Source: Clostridia bacterium
GTDB lineage: Bacteria > Bacillota > Clostridia > Oscillospirales > CAG-272
Direction of reading: 5' to 3'
Length of the DNA stretch: 52,354 nt
Assembly: GCA_017453005.1 (NCBI GenBank)
Contig: JAFTKY010000017.1
Location: 1 to 52,354, forward strand
The notes beneath the pieces are model-generated. The model was given only the letters and a program-made list of their open reading frames with translations, did not search any database and was not told where the DNA came from. The position numbers and the translations under genes are program-made. Of this stretch, positions 1,357-32,400 are shown in pieces. Numbering within the stretch: the stretch's first letter is position 1; each line of letters opens with the position of its first letter.

Positions 1357-1385
1357 TTGACAAGGGGAATATGTTGTGCTATAAT
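1357..1385 (+). promoter_or_regulatory. sigA promoter of the metal ABC operon
   Basis: TTGACA-17bp-TATAAT consensus with TG extension. Confidence 0.85.
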
Positions 1386-1419
1386 TTAACTTGTAGGATA
1401 ACAAGAAGGGAGAGGGAGC

Positions 1420-1725
1420 ATGAAAAGAAGCGGTATTGCCTTCAAGACTGCCATAGTTGCACTTGCGACGCTTTGCGCCGTGGCTTTTGTCATGTTTTCC
1501 TTTGCACAGATCATGGATTTTGACCATGACTGTTATCTTGAAAGCTGTCCCGTATGTACGGCGGCGGCTGTCCGCGAGAATATTCTCGGCACTTGGGCAT
1601 TTCTTGCTATTTTGCTTTTCACTTTCGCGCTGTCCGTCTGTTTTTACAGTGTCAGCTCCAATGACAAAAAGGCACAAATCGCTACGGAAACTCCCGTGCG
1701 CCTCAAGGTGAAGCTCTCGGATTAA
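1420..1725 (+). CDS. Small two-TM protein with HDCxxxxCPVC motif (DUF2946/ZrgE-like leader)
   Basis: Strong RBS; two hydrophobic helices flanking a His/Cys motif; first ORF of a metal-transport operon. Confidence 0.7.
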   Translation: MKRSGIAFKTAIVALATLCAVAFVMFSFAQIMDFDHDCYLESCPVCTAAAVRENILGTWAFLAILLFTFALSVCFYSVSSNDKKAQIATETPVRLKVKLSD

Positions 1726-1828
1726 AAACTCAGGCCTATCACGTATAGGCTGTTTGGCGTTATGTCCGCGTAGGATAACTGCGCCAATTTATGGGGTAAG
1801 TGTACCCCGTGACGAATGAGTTTTTGAT
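1721..1828 (+). ncRNA. Candidate cis-regulatory four-way-junction RNA
   Basis: Closing stem AAAAACTCA(1724-32)/TGAGTTTTT(1817-25) encloses hairpins at 1734-1750, 1754-1787 and 1791-1810. Confidence 0.55.
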
Positions 1829-1877
1829 TTTTGAGGGCCTTTTTTGCGCCCAAAAATAGATTTTAGGGAGTAAACAA

Positions 1878-2519
1878 ATGATAGAAATAAAGAATTTATC
1901 AAAGAAATTTCAAAACGAACGCGCGATAAATTATAAAGATATGCGCTTTGAGGACGGTAAGTCCTATATGCTTCTCGGCGCGTCGGGCTGCGGCAAATCA
2001 ACGCTGCTTAACATGATTGCAGGCATACTTTCCGCCGATAGCGGTGAGATACTTATTGACGGCGTTGATATGCTCAAAAAGACGCAAAAGGAAAAGGACA
2101 AGTTCAGAATAGAGAAGATAGGCTATATATTCCAGGACTTCAAGCTCATAACCGAGATGACCGTTATGGACAATATCAATATTTTGAGGCTTGAGGGCGT
2201 GAACACATCCGCAGCGGACGATATACTCCGCCGTCTTGAAATGTATGAAAAGAAAAACAAGAAGATAAAGCACCTCTCGGGCGGCGAGCGACAGAGAGTT
2301 GCGATAGCCCGCGCGATAGTCAAGATGCCGGACATCATTTTGGCAGACGAGCCCACGGGAAATCTTAACTTTGAGATAGGCGAGGCGGTCATCCGTCAGC
2401 TTATTGAAATATCAAAGGGAAAAACTCTTATTGCCGTCACACACGACGACAGACTTGGCAAATATTTCGACTGCACCATAGACATGAACAGCATGATAGG
2501 AGGTGGCGAGAATGCTTAA
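1878..2519 (+). CDS. ABC transporter ATP-binding protein (LolD/ZrgB-like)
   Basis: Walker [23 protein letters not shown] signature, [14 protein letters not shown]. Confidence 0.95.
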
Positions 2520-3828
2520 GTTTGCGCTCAAAAACATGGCGATAAAAAAGGTTCAGGTAATTCTTATCATTATATCCATCGTGCTGTCCGCAGGTGTTGG
2601 CGTTCTGGCGTTCAACGTCTCCGAGCAGGTAAGCGAGGGACTTACTAACAACGCGGGTTATTATTCCGCAATTATAGGACCGTCGGGAAGTGCGACGCAG
2701 CTTGCCATGAATACCATGTATTTTACGGACGAGCCCGTGGGAACTATTCCGTATTCCTTGGTCTCCGAGCTGTCGCAGGACAGCAGAGTTAAAGAGGTCA
2801 TACCCTTTGCTATGGCGGATAATTACAACGGCTTCTCGGTCGTTGGAACAACACCGGCATTCCTTTCGGCAAAGACACTCGCAAAAGGACGCATGTTTAC
2901 GGAGGGAGAAGCCTTTGAGGCTGTCGTCGGCTCAACGGTTGCCGAGCTTAATAAGCTCGAGATAGGCGACGAGCTTTATACGAGCCACTCCGTCGGAGGA
3001 GACAAGCACGCGCATCCGCTCAAGGTGGTTGGAATTCTTGAGGAAAGTCACAGCGGATTTGACAAGGTAGTATTCACGCAGATAAAGACTATATGGCAGG
3101 CGCATGACCACTCAGGCGAGCACGACGAGGCAAATATAGGTGTAGACCTGCTCTCCGCGGGACATACGACGGAGGAAGCAACCGAGCAGGCGACTGAGGA
3201 TGGTCACGGGCACGTCACGGAGGACGGCGGTCACGGTGACGAGGAGCATGAGGACGGTGAGCATTCGCATACGTCAAATACCGTATGTGCGATACTTGTA
3301 AAGACCCTTAACCCTACATACGCAATGTCGATAGTCAATGAGTATAACGGCAAGGTCTATATGCACGGCGAGGACAGCTATTCCTTGCAGGCAATAGAGC
3401 CTATGGACACCATGCGCGGCGTGCTTGAGGAGACGGACAACACAAAATATATCGTGTTCGTGCTCTGCGCGATAATACTGATAATGAATATTATCATAAT
3501 CTCGATCATAACGCTTCTGAATATGTATCATTCCGCAAAGGAAATATCCCTTATGCGACTTATCGGTATCAGCATGAAGAAGATAAATATGCTGTATCTG
3601 ATACAGAACAGTCTTATAGGACTTGTATCAACTGCGCTTGCGTTTGGAATATCCCGTGCGTGTCTTGTGCTTATGAGCGATTACGTTGAAAGCATGGGAG
3701 CGGTGCTTAATCTCTCAAAGGTCTACCCGCTTGAGTGGGTGATACTTTTTGCGGTGTTCCTCATCAGCGTAATTCCTACGGTGATATGCACCGTGTCAAT
3801 GTCCAAAAAGGACGGAATAAATAACTAA
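2512..3828 (+). CDS. FtsX/MacB-type ABC permease with a His/Glu-rich insert (ZrgC-like)
   Basis: N-terminal TM, large extracytoplasmic domain with HGHVTEDGGHGDEEHEDGEHSH, three C-terminal TMs, LMRLIGIS motif; ATG at 2512 preferred. Confidence 0.85.
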   Translation: MLKFALKNMAIKKVQVILIIISIVLSAGVGVLAFNVSEQVSEGLTNNAGYYSAIIGPSGSATQLAMNTMYFTDEPVGTIPYSLVSELSQDSRVKEVIPFAMADNYNGFSVVGTTPAFLSAKTLAKGRMFTEGEAFEAVVGSTVAELNKLEIGDELYTSHSVGGDKHAHPLKVVGILEESHSGFDKVVFTQIKTIWQAHDHSGEHDEANIGVDLLSAGHTTEEATEQATEDGHGHVTEDGGHGDEEHEDGEHSHTSNTVCAILVKTLNPTYAMSIVNEYNGKVYMHGEDSYSLQAIEPMDTMRGVLEETDNTKYIVFVLCAIILIMNIIIISIITLLNMYHSAKEISLMRLIGISMKKINMLYLIQNSLIGLVSTALAFGISRACLVLMSDYVESMGAVLNLSKVYPLEWVILFAVFLISVIPTVICTVSMSKKDGINN

Positions 3829-3845: not shown

Positions 3846-4823
3846 ATGAAAAATAAATTTCTGATTAAATTTGGCATAGTTGTTTTGACGCTTTCGCTGT
3901 TGCTTACGTTTTCGGCGTGTGACAACGGCTCGGGCGGCGGAAAGCAAAATAATCCCGACGGAGCGACCAAGCTCAGCTTCAAGTCGGCTGCAAGCTATGA
4001 TTATCTCAAAACGCTCAACGGTCAGATGGTGACCATCAACGGATACCTTGCGACAAGCTCGCCCGTTGACGGCTCGTTTATATTCCTTATGAACCTGCCG
4101 CTCCAGAGCTGTCCCTTCTGCGTGCCCAACACGACCGAGCTTTCAAACACTATGGAGGTCTATCCCAAGGACGGAGAAAAATTTGAATATACCAATCAAG
4201 CCGTGCAGGTGGTCGGAACGCTTGAGGTCGCGCCCGACAAAAATCAGCCCTTTACAGATATGTACGGATATCAGTTCAATTTCAAAATCGTTGATGCGAG
4301 CTACACGATTTTGCAGGCGGAGGATCTGTCCGAGGATATGGCACTCTGGCAGAAAATTGCTAACACCGAGGTCATAAACGACGTGTATAAAATGTACGAT
4401 TACGTGCATTTTCTCTGCGCGTGGAATACGTATTCCGTAAAGTCCTGGACGGATGCGGACGGCAACACCCACCCCGGTTATTATCTCTGGGCGGCTGACG
4501 CGATGAATTATATCACGAAGGACGGCGCACAGTGGAATTACGGATATAAGGACGGTTATTTTGACAATCTTATAGCATCAGTCCGCGCGGTAGATGCGAC
4601 GGCGTACGAGGATCTCGTGCAGAACATTGAGGACGCGAAGGCACTGTCCGAAAAGGCATTTGGCGAGCTGAAGGCAGGGAACTATACGTACGAAACAAAG
4701 TACGTTGAAGAGTTTGGGACCACGGACAATATTTATACGATAAACAAGGGCGAGGAGCTCCTTGCTGAGTGGACACAAATTTATACCTTCTTCTCGGATT
4801 GGCTCGGCTCTTGGGAATTATAA
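3846..4823 (+). CDS. Lipoprotein with DUF3299/ZrgD-like CPFC domain
   Basis: Lipobox FSAC; LNGQMVTINGY...FIFLM..QSCPFCVPN OB-fold-like pattern; operon context. Confidence 0.65.
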   Translation: MKNKFLIKFGIVVLTLSLLLTFSACDNGSGGGKQNNPDGATKLSFKSAASYDYLKTLNGQMVTINGYLATSSPVDGSFIFLMNLPLQSCPFCVPNTTELSNTMEVYPKDGEKFEYTNQAVQVVGTLEVAPDKNQPFTDMYGYQFNFKIVDASYTILQAEDLSEDMALWQKIANTEVINDVYKMYDYVHFLCAWNTYSVKSWTDADGNTHPGYYLWAADAMNYITKDGAQWNYGYKDGYFDNLIASVRAVDATAYEDLVQNIEDAKALSEKAFGELKAGNYTYETKYVEEFGTTDNIYTINKGEELLAEWTQIYTFFSDWLGSWEL

Positions 4824-14912: not shown

Positions 14913-16211
14913 TTAAAGGTCGAGCCTTATAAGGTCCTCGTACGTCTCGCGGGCAACTGCGAGACGAGCCTTGCCGCCCTTTACCATAATCACGGGAGGA
15001 CGGGGAATACGGTTATAGTTTGAAGCCATGGAGTAGTTGTATGCGCCCGTGACGAGTACCGCAAGAATGTCTCCGCGTCGCGCAGGCTGAATATCCATGT
15101 CCTCGCCTATAAGGTCGCCCGACTCACAGCATCTGCCCGCAACAGTCGCTCTGTAGGAGCGGGGCATGTCTGCGCGATTTGCGATAAGGGCTGTGTAGCG
15201 CGACTGATAAAGCGCGTATCGGGGGTTGTCGGGCATACCGCCGTCAACCGAAATGTAATTTTTAAAGCCGGGTATCTCCTTTACCGAGCCGACGGTGTAA
15301 AGAGTTATTCCCGCTGCCGCAACAAGCGAGCGTCCGGGCTCAAGGCGTACCTCGGGCATAGCTATGCCGTTCTGCGCGCAGAAATCCGTTACTACACTTG
15401 CAATATCGGATATAGCCGCGGCGTAGTCTATCTGAGGGTCGTCCTCGGTATAGCGAACACCAAGTCCGCCGCCGAGATTGAGCTCCTTTATTGTATAGCC
15501 GAGTGTGTTTTTTATGTCCGCGATAAATCTTATCATGATGTCAGCCGCGTCGGAGAAGGGCTGAACATCAAATATCTGCGAGCCGATGTGACAGTGAAGT
15601 CCGCACAGCTCAATGTTGTCCGCCGCTATTGCGCGCTTGACTATATCCATAGCCTGACCCGTCTCAATGGCTGAGCCGAACTTTGAATCAACGCTGCCCG
15701 TCACTACCGCCTTGTGCGTGTGGGGGTCAATGCCGGGGGTGATGCGGAGAAGTATCTTTTGTGTGATGCTTCTGGCTTTTGCCTCGTCGCTGACGGCGTA
15801 AAGCTCGTCGATATTGTCAACGACTATTCTGCCAACGCCCATTTCCATAGCGTCGGATATGTCGCGGTCGGTCTTGTTGTTGCCGTGGAAGAATATCTTT
15901 TCTGCAGGGAAGCCCGCCGCACGCGCGGTGTAAAGCTCACCGCCAGAGACGCAGTCTATCCCAAGCCCTTCCTCTGCGGCTATTTTGTATATCTCCTTAA
16001 AGCAGAGCGACTTTGACGCAAAGAGCGGAAGCGCTCCCGCGCCGAAATTCTCGGTCGCAGCCTTGAGATATATTCTCATGTTTTGCCTTATAACGTCCTC
16101 GTCAATGATGTACGCAGGTGTGCCAAATTCACGTGCCAGCTCGACAGTATCAAGCCCGCCTATCGTAAGGTGTCCCTGTTCATTGACGGAAAGATGGGGA
16201 TAAAGTATCAT
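14913..16211 (-). CDS. lysA: Diaminopimelate decarboxylase
   Basis: FASK PLP lysine, HCHIGSQ, EPGRS, GRCCESGD, GAYNYSMASNYN. Confidence 0.96.
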   Translation of the reverse strand: MILYPHLSVNEQGHLTIGGLDTVELAREFGTPAYIIDEDVIRQNMRIYLKAATENFGAGALPLFASKSLCFKEIYKIAAEEGLGIDCVSGGELYTARAAGFPAEKIFFHGNNKTDRDISDAMEMGVGRIVVDNIDELYAVSDEAKARSITQKILLRITPGIDPHTHKAVVTGSVDSKFGSAIETGQAMDIVKRAIAADNIELCGLHCHIGSQIFDVQPFSDAADIMIRFIADIKNTLGYTIKELNLGGGLGVRYTEDDPQIDYAAAISDIASVVTDFCAQNGIAMPEVRLEPGRSLVAAAGITLYTVGSVKEIPGFKNYISVDGGMPDNPRYALYQSRYTALIANRADMPRSYRATVAGRCCESGDLIGEDMDIQPARRGDILAVLVTGAYNYSMASNYNRIPRPPVIMVKGGKARLAVARETYEDLIRLDL

Positions 16212-29434: not shown

Positions 29435-32400
29435 ATGTATCTTAAATCAATAGAGCTTCAAGGATTTAAGTCATTTCCCGATAAAACAAAGCTGACGTTT
29501 GACTCAAAGGGCGAGGATATGTCCTCGGGCGTTACGGTCATAGTAGGCCCTAACGGAAGCGGAAAGTCAAACATTGCAGACGCGATGCGTTGGGTTTTGG
29601 GTGAAATATCCTCAAAATCTTTGCGCGGAACGAAAATGGAGGACGTTATCTTCGGCGGTGCTGACAGCCGCAGACCTATGGGCTTTGCCGAGGTTTCGGT
29701 AACGTTTGACAATACTGATGAAACAAGCAGGCTCGACTGCCCCTACGACGAGGTGACTGTCACCAGACGTTACTTCCGCGCGGGCGAGAGCGAATACTAT
29801 ATAAACAGACGCCCCGTTCGTCTTCGCGACATCTACGAGCTTTTCATGAACACGGGTATCGGACGTGACGGATATTCCATTATCGGTCAGGGACGAATTG
29901 CCGATATGGTATCCCGTAAGAGTGACGAGCGCCGCGGAATTTTCGAGGACGCGTCGGGTATCGCAAAATACAGACATAAGAAAAACGAGGCGGAGAGAAA
30001 GCTTTCGCAGACCGAGGACAATATGACGCGTGTCAACGACGTCTTTGCAGAGGTCTCGGCGCAGGTTGGCCCTCTTGAGAGAGAGGCAGGCAAGGCAAAG
30101 CGCGCCATCGAGCTTATGGACACGAAAAAGAAGGTAGACGTAAGCCTTTGGCTCTTTGATACCGAAAAGCTCCGCGCGGACATAACCGTAGCCGAGGATG
30201 CGCTCCGTCATTCCGCGTTTGACCTGAAAAACGCAGAGGACTCCCAGCAGTCGCTTGACGCACGCTCAGCAAAGCTTTTTGACGCGTCGCAGAGCGGAAA
30301 GATCGCGTCCTCCCAGCTTCTCTCGGAAATACGCGACGTAACGAATGAAATACACACGCTTGACAGTGAGTTCAGAGTAAGCGAGAGCAATATCGCGCAC
30401 GCGGGCGAGCTTATGCAGAACGCAGAGCAGTCTCGAGCGTCCTTTGAAAAAACTCTTGAAGAGGAAAAGACAAAGGCAGAGGCTCACAAGGGAAAGATAG
30501 ACGAGCTTAACTTGTCGCTTGAAGAGTGGAATCAAAAGCTCGAGGCGGCAGAGGACGAGATATTTGAGCAGAAGTGTGAGATCGCCGAGCTTGATAAGGC
30601 TATTGATACCGCTTTCTCGGACAGCAAGAGCGCGGAGGAGGTCGCGACCGACATTAAGGTGCGTATATCCGTGCTTGAAAACGCGCGCTCCAGCGGAAGC
30701 GACAGAAACGCGAGTATTCTCGTTGACATTGAGGAATACGAGCAGATACACGAGCGTCTTGAAAAGGACAGAGCGTCTGCGGAAAGATCGGTAGGAAATT
30801 ACGAAAAGGCGATTTCCGAGGCGGACGCGGAGATAACCGAGGAGGAAAACAAGCTCTCGGCGGCAAATAACACCTACGGTGAGCTTTACGAAGAAATAAA
30901 CGTCAAAAAGCTGAGAAGGGATTCCGCCGTGCAGAAGGCGGCAACCATCAAGGCGGCAGAGGAGCAGTTCCACGGATATGCAGCCAGCGTAAAATACGTC
31001 ATGAACGGATACGGCGCGGGCAATATCACCGACATTCACGGCAGCCCCTGCGGAACTATTTACGGACCTCTCTCAAAGCTTATTTCGGTTGAGTCAAAAT
31101 TCATTACCGCTATTGAGGTAGCGCTGGGCGCAAATCTTCAGAATATCGTAGTTGAGGACGAGAACACCGCAAAGGCGGCTATGTATTACCTCAAGCGCGG
31201 TCAGGCGGGACGAGCTACGTTTTTCCCGCTCACGTCCATGAAGCCGTCAAACGAAACGCCCGAGATGCGTGACGCAAGGGGCTTTGCGGGATATATTGAC
31301 ACGGCGGATAATCTCTGCCGCAGAGATTCCAAGTTTGACGCGGTAATTTCGTCTCTGCTCGGCAGAACGCTCGTCTTTGATAATATTGACAACGCTACCG
31401 CTATGGCGAAGGCACTCAGATACAAGGTCAGAGTAGTAACGCTTGACGGTCAGCAGATAAACGCGGGCGGTTCGTTTACGGGCGGTTCGGTAAATCAGGG
31501 CGGCAGCGCGCTCTCGCGTGCGGAGGAGATGAAGAACCTCACCGCGGAGGCAGAGAGACTTGAGGGCGAGATAAAGGCTCTTGAGGGCAGACTGTCCGCA
31601 CTCAAAAAGGATATTGAGGAATATACCGAGCGTATTACAGAGCTTTCGGATAAGAAGGAGATACTTTCCATGCTCAAGAGCTCGGAGAACGCAAAGCTTG
31701 AGCAGATAAACGCGAAGTTTGACGCGAACAAGTCCCTTCTTGACAAGATGCGCGACGACTACGAGCAGATAGTCCGCATGAGCGAAAGATACGAGGAGGA
31801 CATAGCGGCACTCAAGGAGGAGGAGCAGGCTCAGAGCGAAAGGGTGCGCGAGATACTCGCCGCAAGAGAGCATAAGCACGAGCAAAAGGTTGACGCCGAG
31901 GAAAAGCTCGACGAGCTTGAAAAGTCCAAGACCGCTATAATCATCAAAATAAGCGAGGTCCAGAAGGACATTGAGACCGCAACGGCGCTGCTTTCCGTAT
32001 CTGAGGAAAGAATTCGTATGTGCAGGGAGGACATTCTCTCCGCCGAGGGCAGAATACAGTCCTACAAAACGCAAATAGAGAATACCACTGTAGCGCAGGC
32101 AGAAAACCGCAAAAAGTATGCGGAGTGCGAAGGGCTGCTTGCGGAGCTGAACGAAAAGAAAAATCAGCTTGACGAGGGCAACCTGGAGTTTGAAAGAAAG
32201 CTCAACGAGATAAACGCGCTTATCCGTGAGAAGATGTCCGAGAAGGAGCTTATTTTCCGCGCACACACGCAAAACGAGGCAAAGCTTAACAGCCTGCGCG
32301 AGAATTACGATAAGCTTGCAGGCAGACTTTGGGAGGACTACGAGCTTACGCGTAACGACGCAGTAGCTCTCGGATATCCTGCGGTAACTCCCGAAAACCG

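Follow-up and report, generated by a model that had tools for sequence, protein, structure and literature searches.

In this work we describe a short open reading frame (ORF) at the head of a metal-type ATP-binding cassette (ABC) operon in a 52,354-nucleotide (nt) stretch of DNA from a Clostridia bacterium (assembly GCA_017453005.1, contig JAFTKY010000017.1, positions 1 to 52,354 of the forward strand; hereafter the window, meaning this stretch at its full length). Judging from sequence comparison, we lean towards reading this ORF as a cis-acting leader whose nascent membrane peptide senses metal and thereby gates a zinc-importer operon. This proposal rests on the conservation of the peptide, on its gene context and on the pairing of its last codons with the downstream RNA.

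First, the leader belongs to a large family that is conserved in its metal site and its C-terminal tail. The product in the window has 101 residues, with hydrophobic stretches at about residues 10-32 and 58-78 and the motif HDCYLESCPVC at residues 36-46. An initial annotation of the sequence had described such an ORF, with two transmembrane (TM) segments flanking HDCxxxxCPVC and an end in TPVRLKVKLSD, behind a consensus promoter, and all of these elements are present:

1420..1725, forward strand: leader or small membrane-protein ORF of 101 amino acids, with a Shine-Dalgarno (SD) sequence GGGAG 5 nt upstream of the ATG; topology predicted as N-in, loop-out, C-in.
1525..1557, forward strand: codons for H36-x-C38-x4-C43-x2-C46, a putative extracytoplasmic metal (zinc) site, from its conservation in the family.
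1690..1725, forward strand: codons for the conserved tail TPVRLKVKLSD and the stop codon; candidate arrest motif.

The product has no Pfam or NCBIfam family at or above cut-off, and family members in the sources checked carry only the label 'hypothetical protein'. Homologues of about 30% identity occur in 6 of 36 genomes of the same genus and in none of 24 genomes from other families of the order; H36, C38, C43, C46, T91, P92, V93, L95, K96, V97, K98 and L99 are invariant. In a class-wide sample, six of 398 other genomes hold a true member, and a seventh, weak match lacks such an ORF. A profile search of 1.84 billion representatives returned 3094 clusters at E <= 1e-3 and 207 at E <= 1e-10, and among the 150 matches listed nearly all are 92-107 residues long and aligned to the last residue. 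The matches listed in this search, together with five previously found homologues, form a set of 153 small proteins, in 151 of which a permissive form of the tail pattern is found (consensus [TS][PL][VI]xLKVKL[SLT][ND]-stop). Because the first query profile contained the tail, the search was repeated with residues 1-80 only, and among the 120 matches listed for this tail-less profile 107 carry the strict tail and four a one-residue variant, while a frameshift or a truncation seems likely in three. No part of the family is more conserved than the C-terminal motif, and it is conserved as peptide: in 41 non-redundant loci, which were collected by the tail pattern and bear on synonymous variation, not on conservation, the T, P, V, L, K, V and K of the tail use all of their synonymous codons, including all six for leucine, and since the TPVxLKVK codons vary in this manner, selection there is on the peptide.

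Loci found by the tail pattern come mostly from metagenome-assembled genomes of Clostridia, with one locus each assigned to Fretibacterium, Treponema and Erysipelotrichales by its label. No close relative of the window protein was found in two scans of metagenomes, and the genus comprises 39 genomes. Strain contigs from public gut and bovine metagenomes carry the substitutions P92L (1694 C>T) and D101N (1720 G>A), which are the two commonest alternatives of the family; two strain variants, 1720 G>A and 1733 G>A, each turn a G.U pair of the RNA described below into an A-U pair. In one protein of 1166 residues (P0066), the segment of the profile with the Cys motif (positions 23-57) matched 18 times over; this is probably an unrelated Cys-rich repeat protein, and a 'KVKLSD' string in a Helcococcus paper proved to be part of an unrelated enzyme.

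Second, the metal site and the tail are held at a nearly constant distance. The pattern H-x-C-x4-C-x2-C is found in 146 of the 153 proteins, the other seven are near variants of it, and the CxxC inside it is invariant. From the last cysteine to the C-terminus there are a median of 55 residues (5-95% range 53-55, extremes 48-56, n = 146), and in six loci found with a hidden Markov model (HMM) the distances are 55, 53, 55, 55, 55 and 55; 44 residues separate the last cysteine from the start of the tail motif. The sequence between the metal site and the tail is not conserved, and the TM helices vary freely. Mean net charges of +3.9 for the N-terminal tail, -3.1 for the loop and +2.5 for the C-terminal tail, with lysine and arginine preceding helix 4-32, point to an N-in, loop-out, C-in topology. 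AlphaFold2, run with 121 sequences, models a helical hairpin (mean predicted local distance difference test score, pLDDT, 76) in which helices 4-32 and 44-89 are joined by the His/Cys loop, and leaves the conserved tail (90-101) as coil at pLDDT 46-58.

Third, the gene context of the family is uniform. At all 54 loci with a determinable downstream gene (47 found by the tail pattern, five found by HMM, locus L007 and the window itself), the next gene starts a zinc-type ABC importer, and these importers fall into two unrelated classes. Pfam confirms a zinc-type ABC gene in the next position at 47 of the 51 loci found by the tail pattern; the remaining four end at a contig edge, and none has an unrelated neighbour. 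The next gene at these 47 loci is of the ABC_tran/MacB type in 20, znuA in 26 (one of them a ZinT-ZnuA fusion) and an ATPase in one; ZnuA is usually followed by ABC_tran and ABC-3 genes, and the MacB-type loci continue with a MacB_PCD/FtsX permease and an unassigned lipoprotein. ZnuA also comes next in L007 and in all five scanned HMM-found loci of the class-wide sample. The His-rich loops of the ZnuA proteins and the occurrence of ZinT domains, with ZinT-ZnuA fusions in L019 and L063, indicate zinc, and we therefore regard zinc, rather than copper or nickel, as the most likely sensed metal. The operon of the window is of the MacB type:

1878..2519, forward strand: ABC ATPase (ABC_tran), starting 152 nt downstream of the leader ORF.
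2503..3828, forward strand: MacB_PCD/FtsX permease with a His/Asp/Glu-rich (periplasmic) insert.
3846..4823, forward strand: lipoprotein of 325 amino acids, the conserved third gene of MacB-type operons.

The 325-residue lipoprotein has no Pfam, NCBIfam or PDB sequence match. Since the MacB-type permease and the unassigned lipoprotein (300-330 residues) recur as a unit behind the leader, together they probably form an uncharacterised zinc importer. On the other side of the leader, 20 upstream ORFs were scanned; a FUR-family gene directly precedes the leader in five cases and a DUF134 gene in six (L021, L024, L026, L034, L046 and L050). The product of the latter has a Cys-rich C-terminus and may be a regulator, and these loci belong to the clade with short spacers of about 50 nt between leader and importer.

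These data also bear on an alternative, namely that the product is itself functional as a small membrane protein, for example as a sensor of zinc, as a chaperone or as an accessory subunit of the importer. The tail would then be a linear motif for a cytoplasmic partner or for proteolysis, and the RNA helix described below would reflect ordinary translational coupling or stoichiometry. A product of about 100 residues with two TM helices, a confident hairpin model and an invariant metal site would fit such a role, as would a tail that is disordered in the model, as linear motifs are, and the Fur-family gene that adjoins some loci. However, only the metal site and the tail are conserved while the TM helices are free to vary, and because the gene accompanies two unrelated transporter architectures, a role as a specific subunit is unlikely. 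Moreover, this explanation accounts neither for the fixed, sequence-variable spacer of 55 residues nor for the structured, terminator-like spacers of 50-300 nt that follow the gene, and we consider it unlikely, albeit the most serious of the alternatives.

Fourth, the end of the leader ORF is part of a stable RNA structure. The segment 1680-1895 of the window folds with a minimum free energy (MFE) of -76 kcal/mol (z = -5.0), and none of 200 shuffled sequences is as stable. The fold predicts these elements, in which the two arms of the long closing helix are named R1 and R2:

1713..1732, forward strand: R1, 5' arm of the closing helix, covering sense codons 99-101, the stop codon and 7 nt beyond it.
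1733..1812, forward strand: four-way junction with three internal hairpins (1733-1751, 1754-1787 and 1789-1812).
1817..1838, forward strand: R2, 3' arm of the closing helix, ending in the SD-like UGAGGGC.
1840..1845, forward strand: run of six uridines (U6) directly 3' of the GC-rich base of the R1:R2 helix; terminator-like.
1843..1874, forward strand: local hairpin R3:R4 (-7.6 kcal/mol), which sequesters the SD GGGAG (1866-1870) of the ATPase gene.

The core of the fold is a 20-base-pair helix (1713-1732/1817-1838) that closes the four-way junction, and the R1:R2 junction as a whole amounts to -57.7 kcal/mol. At the base of the helix, GCUCUCG (1713-19), which comprises the Leu-Ser-Asp codons, pairs with UGAGGGC (1832-38), and the U6 run follows directly. 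Alternatively, GAGGGCC of R2 may pair with GCGCCC (R3, 1846-1851) at -7.7 kcal/mol, close to the -7.6 kcal/mol of R3 with R4, the SD arm. The SD-like UGAGGGC of R2 also occurs in L009, L010, L011, L016, L044 and L045. The initial annotation had proposed three nested pairings between the last codons and the downstream RNA, and all three complementarities exist in the sequence: ACTCCC (1690-95) with GGGAGT (1866-71), CCTCAA (1701-06) with TTGAGG (1831-36), and the 9-mer AAAAACTCA (1724-32) with TGAGTTTTT (1817-25). The 9-mer pairing holds as part of the 20-base-pair helix, whereas the other two are absent from the best fold and are not conserved. CCTCAA/TTGAGG is displaced from the MFE structure by the long helix, and CCUC/GAGG forms only with an imposed ribosome footprint; ACUCCC pairs with the SD only in a fold that starts at 1690, whereas a fold with a longer 5' flank places the SD opposite the nearby 1846-1851, with an additional AAAA/UUUU pairing. 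About one perfect 6-mer match is expected by chance between these stretches, and the T-P codons differ among relatives.

Across the family, the last codons co-vary with the downstream SD region. In the MFE folds of most loci, the K-L-S-D/N codons and the stop codon lie opposite the SD region of the next gene. In short MacB-type loci CUUUCG pairs with CGAAAG(GA), in ZnuA-type loci CUUUCGGAUU pairs with AAUUCGGAGG, and the partner of GCUCUCGGAUU in long MacB-type loci, the window among them, is an SD-like (A)UUCGAGGGC located 39-65 nt before the start codon. When natural tails were compared with 300 synonymous recodings each, pairing with the 32 nt before the next start gave a mean z of -1.6, with 18 of 37 loci below -1.64 and a Wilcoxon p of 1.2e-6; for seven long loci tested over the whole spacer, z ranges from -0.9 to -3.3. 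Matched tail and SD arms from 26 loci pair at -9.50 kcal/mol and mismatched ones at -7.66, and none of 10000 permutations is as low; because the loci are related, all of these p-values are overstated. Individual changes compensate as well: AAC is paired with G in L059, CUG-UCC-GAU is paired with AUCGGACA in L035 and L038, and the D101N variant replaces a G.U pair of the helix by A-U. In an ensemble model the SD is less than 0.3 unpaired in 29 of 41 loci and mainly tail-paired in 25 of 41.

The spacers between leader and importer genes (50-300 nt) are structured and terminator-like. In ZnuA-type loci the spacer takes the form of a three-way junction, with the stems P1 (CAAGGGG/CCCCUUG, followed by U5-7), P2 (GUCUGCC/GGCAGGC) and P3 (CGGC/GCCG), as for example in:

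L019, 5318-5384: three-way junction.
L020, 5212-5281: three-way junction.

A covariance model built from two loci finds this junction in 15 other loci at E < 1e-3, always directly after the leader ORF. In the resulting, model-fitted alignment the share of paired cells is 96.1% (41-52% in slid controls), 11 of 19 pairs show a compensatory change, and the covariation score of 0.406 is reached by none of 500 shuffles (0.211 +/- 0.022); RNAalifold on a plain MAFFT alignment recovers the P1 stem only. The model does not match the window's own spacer, and a scan of 150 class genomes with 33 candidates scored per genome gave one match, an ordinary terminator without a leader ORF, so that in this sample the RNA did not turn up apart from the leader. 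Rfam scans returned a best E of 0.15-0.6 for positions 1250-2000 of the window, far below the gathering score, and two tRNAs and nothing else for twelve homologous loci. The intergenic element of the window is single-copy in its genome and is therefore not a repeat or a miniature inverted-repeat transposable element. Rfam has no family for the three-way junction with its U-run, which may in itself constitute a cis-regulatory or terminator motif not described before. As the stretch after the U-run is too short for a promoter, the importer genes must be reached by read-through, and this requirement is the design of an attenuator. For the window, the tail helix followed by U6 suggests transcription attenuation, which on the modelled folds is the likelier output, ranked above unmasking of the SD.

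A further alternative is plain translational coupling or attenuation, in which any ribosome at the stop codon would open the helix and the end of the tail would be conserved as an anti-SD RNA. The codon preferences of the paired region would agree with it, as among 41 loci leucine is encoded by CTC or CTT in 35, serine by TCG in 24 and the last residue by NAU (GAU or AAU) in 38, as would the S-to-L change in L007, which keeps the pairing. Nevertheless, T-P-V-x-L-K-V-K, which lies 5' of the paired codons, is invariant as peptide and synonymous as RNA, and the metal motif and the fixed distance would be left without a role, which makes this explanation improbable.

The final codon also permits a reading in which intracellular zinc acts through tRNA modification. 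NAU codons are read by queuosine-modified tRNAs, and several of the enzymes that make queuosine need zinc, so that zinc starvation would pause the ribosome at the final NAU codon and hold it on the tail. According to a review, loss of queuosine weakens NAU decoding and can stall ribosomes (PMC11672702). The NAU share of 38 of 41 loci stands against a background of 0.456, and only D or N is accepted at this position. However, RNA pairing explains this bias, since the U of NAU is base-paired in the helix and the exceptional AAC of L059 is compensated on the other arm, and the outward-facing Cys/His loop would have no role; we thus find this reading very improbable. Besides a pairing constraint, coincidence or a second input could also lie behind the codon bias. 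A bacteriocin-type precursor, or one of a ribosomally synthesised and post-translationally modified peptide, or an immunity peptide, exported by the MacB-type transporter, can hardly be correct: although in NCBIfam the ATPase scores best with a putative subfamily for bacteriocin export (189.6 bits, where the cut-off is 254.85) and the peptide is small and Cys-rich, most members precede ZnuA/ZnuCB importers, no modification enzymes lie nearby, and two TM helices with a cytoplasmic tail are unfit for a secreted precursor.

Returning to the ORF as a metal-sensing nascent leader, we propose the following sequence of events. With the tail TPVxLKVKLS[DN] translated, the ribosome would pause at the stop codon or beside it and thereby block the helix, which in the window is R1:R2, the stem that closes the four-way junction before U6. 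With the helix open, transcription would read through and/or the SD would become exposed, and the importer would be made; in the window, breaking R1:R2 would remove the terminator-like stem with its U6, and R2 may then capture R3 and free the SD. When zinc is available, it would bind the His/Cys3 loop of the translocating nascent chain outside the membrane, and folding of the loop or insertion of the second TM helix would pull on the chain and relieve the pause; with the ribosome gone, the helix would form and attenuate the operon. That scarce metal leads to expression is inferred from the logic of an uptake operon and from the copper-responsive leader CruR, discussed below.

Several points weigh against this proposal. 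To our knowledge the tail, which lacks a proline pair, resembles no known arrest motif, and a conserved two-TM protein of 100 residues could have a function of its own. Several loci carry a Fur-family gene, and ordinary Zur control may suffice. The tail itself served to select the 51 pattern-found loci, a limit that adds to the relatedness of the loci and the fitted junction alignment mentioned above. In the ensemble model, a ribosome placed at the stop codon increases SD accessibility by more than 0.3 in only 11 of 41 loci. In the window, the SD is 0.29 unpaired in all four modelled states, with the free, monosome and disome states alike, and pairing of the tail is not significantly better than that of synonymous recodings (z = -0.94 over 32 nt and -1.09 over the whole spacer). 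Finally, the sole contig from an RNA library, 178 nt long (1450-1627), lies within the ORF, and contigs cannot show 3' ends.

The promoter region of the window and its upstream neighbours complete this picture:

1357..1385, forward strand: promoter TTGACA-17 nt-TG-extended TATAAT, with 12 of 12 sigma-70 matches and no candidate Zur box.
1390..1405, forward strand: inverted repeat CTTGT/ACAAG in the 5' untranslated region, just 3' of the -10 element; absent from the leaders of relatives.

The initial annotation had recognised no Zur/Fur-type operator at this promoter, and we agree. The window genome holds a separate fur-znuA operon without a leader ORF (contig C31, about 30190-31680, L071-L074), whose promoter carries two perfect palindromic copies of the candidate Zur box TGAGAATNNTTCTCA, and this box has no match with up to three mismatches at 1330-1420. 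A further candidate box at 16064-16078 lies inside a long ORF and is probably a chance match. Many other loci likewise have near-consensus promoters without a shared operator. The 10-mer GTAGGATAAC occurs twice, at 1394-1403 within the inverted repeat and at 1771-1780 in the second hairpin of the spacer. Upstream of the leader, genes for a LytTR DNA-binding protein and a LiaF-like membrane protein occupy 167-1302; with a strong terminator between them and the leader (1311-1330), they lie outside its unit.

In its fullest form, which we advance tentatively and with less confidence than the gating role itself, our proposal is that the family is the first example of a zinc-responsive regulatory nascent chain, in which a zinc-knuckle-like His/Cys3 loop, exposed outside the membrane exactly 55 residues behind the peptidyl-transferase centre, would fold upon zinc binding and thereby release a new arrest at the stop codon that involves no proline pair. 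The readout would be a terminator or anti-SD RNA not described before, a three- or four-way junction with a U-run, and the switch would gate ZnuABC- and MacB-type importers in thousands of gut Clostridia lineages and in a few anaerobes of other groups, either alongside Zur or in its place. So far, sensing of a metal by a nascent peptide at the post-transcriptional level has been shown only for copper, by CruR and CutF, which are unrelated peptides, and in the literature that we searched we found no description of the tail motif or of a bacterial zinc-responsive leader ORF. If the proposal is true, a zinc version with an unrelated peptide and a new RNA would mean that this solution evolved more than once. 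It would also provide a new stalling motif for ribosome biology that may act at termination, and would show that zinc control in Clostridia abundant in gut and rumen has a layer so far overlooked. An unnamed family with at least 3094 clusters would gain a function, and the MacB-type transporter, together with its unassigned lipoprotein, would be indicated as an importer of zinc.

Finally, the proposed system can be compared with known forms of control. Repression of znuABC by Zur/Fur has the same physiological target, but the leader operon has a promoter without a candidate box, and its control would act after initiation. In trp-type attenuators, too, alternative RNA pairings use a first strand that includes the end of the leader ORF, and as in these attenuators and in intrinsic terminators, the window has a GC-rich stem base (1832-1838) followed by a U-run (1840-1845); unlike trp-type leaders, however, ours has no run of regulatory codons, and unlike in intrinsic terminators, the stem closes a multi-branch junction, four-way in the window and three-way in ZnuA-type loci. 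The closest precedents for arrest on a membrane-targeted leader are MifM-yidC2 of Bacillus subtilis and SecM-secA of E. coli, in which the arrest is relieved by pulling force and the stalled ribosome opens an SD-sequestering hairpin; both monitor the insertion or secretion machinery, and MifM is a Firmicute precedent for a non-proline arrest near the stop codon. The leader family is unrelated to them in sequence, and its proposed input is metal instead of that machinery.

The copper-sensing leaders of the DUF2946 family are more similar in design. The CutF nascent chain of Rhodobacter capsulatus senses periplasmic copper and stalls at PPP, and the stall melts a stem-loop over the ribosome-binding site of the next gene (bioRxiv 10.1101/2025.02.05.636593). 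On our proposal the leader family would share with CutF an exported nascent chain, an extracytoplasmic metal, a C-terminal motif and an RNA that shields the ribosome-binding site. CutF, in contrast, uses PPP with EF-P and a cleaved signal peptide rather than a two-TM hairpin, and its logic is opposite, as copper induces the stalling and switches on a detoxifying oxidase. CruR (Bp2923) of Bordetella pertussis has an export signal, a CXXC motif and a RAPP motif with 45 intervening residues, conserved within 1-2, and a long structured spacer ahead of copper-uptake operons (PMC9426467). In the model of its authors, arrest keeps the operon on when metal is scarce and copper relieves the arrest, and they note that no riboswitch is known for copper or zinc (PMC9426467).

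The leader family is nevertheless not a member of DUF2946 by sequence, although it would work like CruR and CutF, as it has neither the match to the model nor the RAPP/PPP ending. The DUF2946 HMM (PF11162) matches none of 121 family members at E <= 0.01, with no other Pfam family above noise, and it has no match in the window's genome; an ending in RAPP, RGPP or PPP is found in none of 88 + 120 homologues from word-based searches that stay close to their queries. In the ESM Atlas, DUF2946-like clusters are the nearest among named ones (0.84-0.86), which is a lead only. The leader family differs from CruR in its tail, TPVxLKVKLS[DN]-stop instead of RAPP, in its motif H-x-C-x4-C-x2-C followed by a second TM helix, and in its context of zinc importers in Gram-positive anaerobes. 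Moreover, its proposed output RNA is intrinsic-terminator-like or anti-SD, whereas CruR acts through Rho, and its loop is predicted to face outwards, whereas CruR senses cytoplasmic copper in the authors' model. The initial annotation had proposed a Firmicute analogue of these leaders with a non-RAPP arrest motif, in which a stalled ribosome frees the SD when metal is scarce; release of the SD in the window is not reproduced, because SD accessibility is unchanged by the ribosome footprint, whereas the CruR-like layout and the non-RAPP tail are supported. What the family shares with CruR includes several of the features typical of DUF2946 leaders, namely a CxxC motif, an N-terminal TM or export segment, a place at the head of an operon for metal uptake, an intergenic region that is long and structured, and a fixed spacing between the Cys motif and the C-proximal motif, of 45 residues in CruR and 44 in the leader family.

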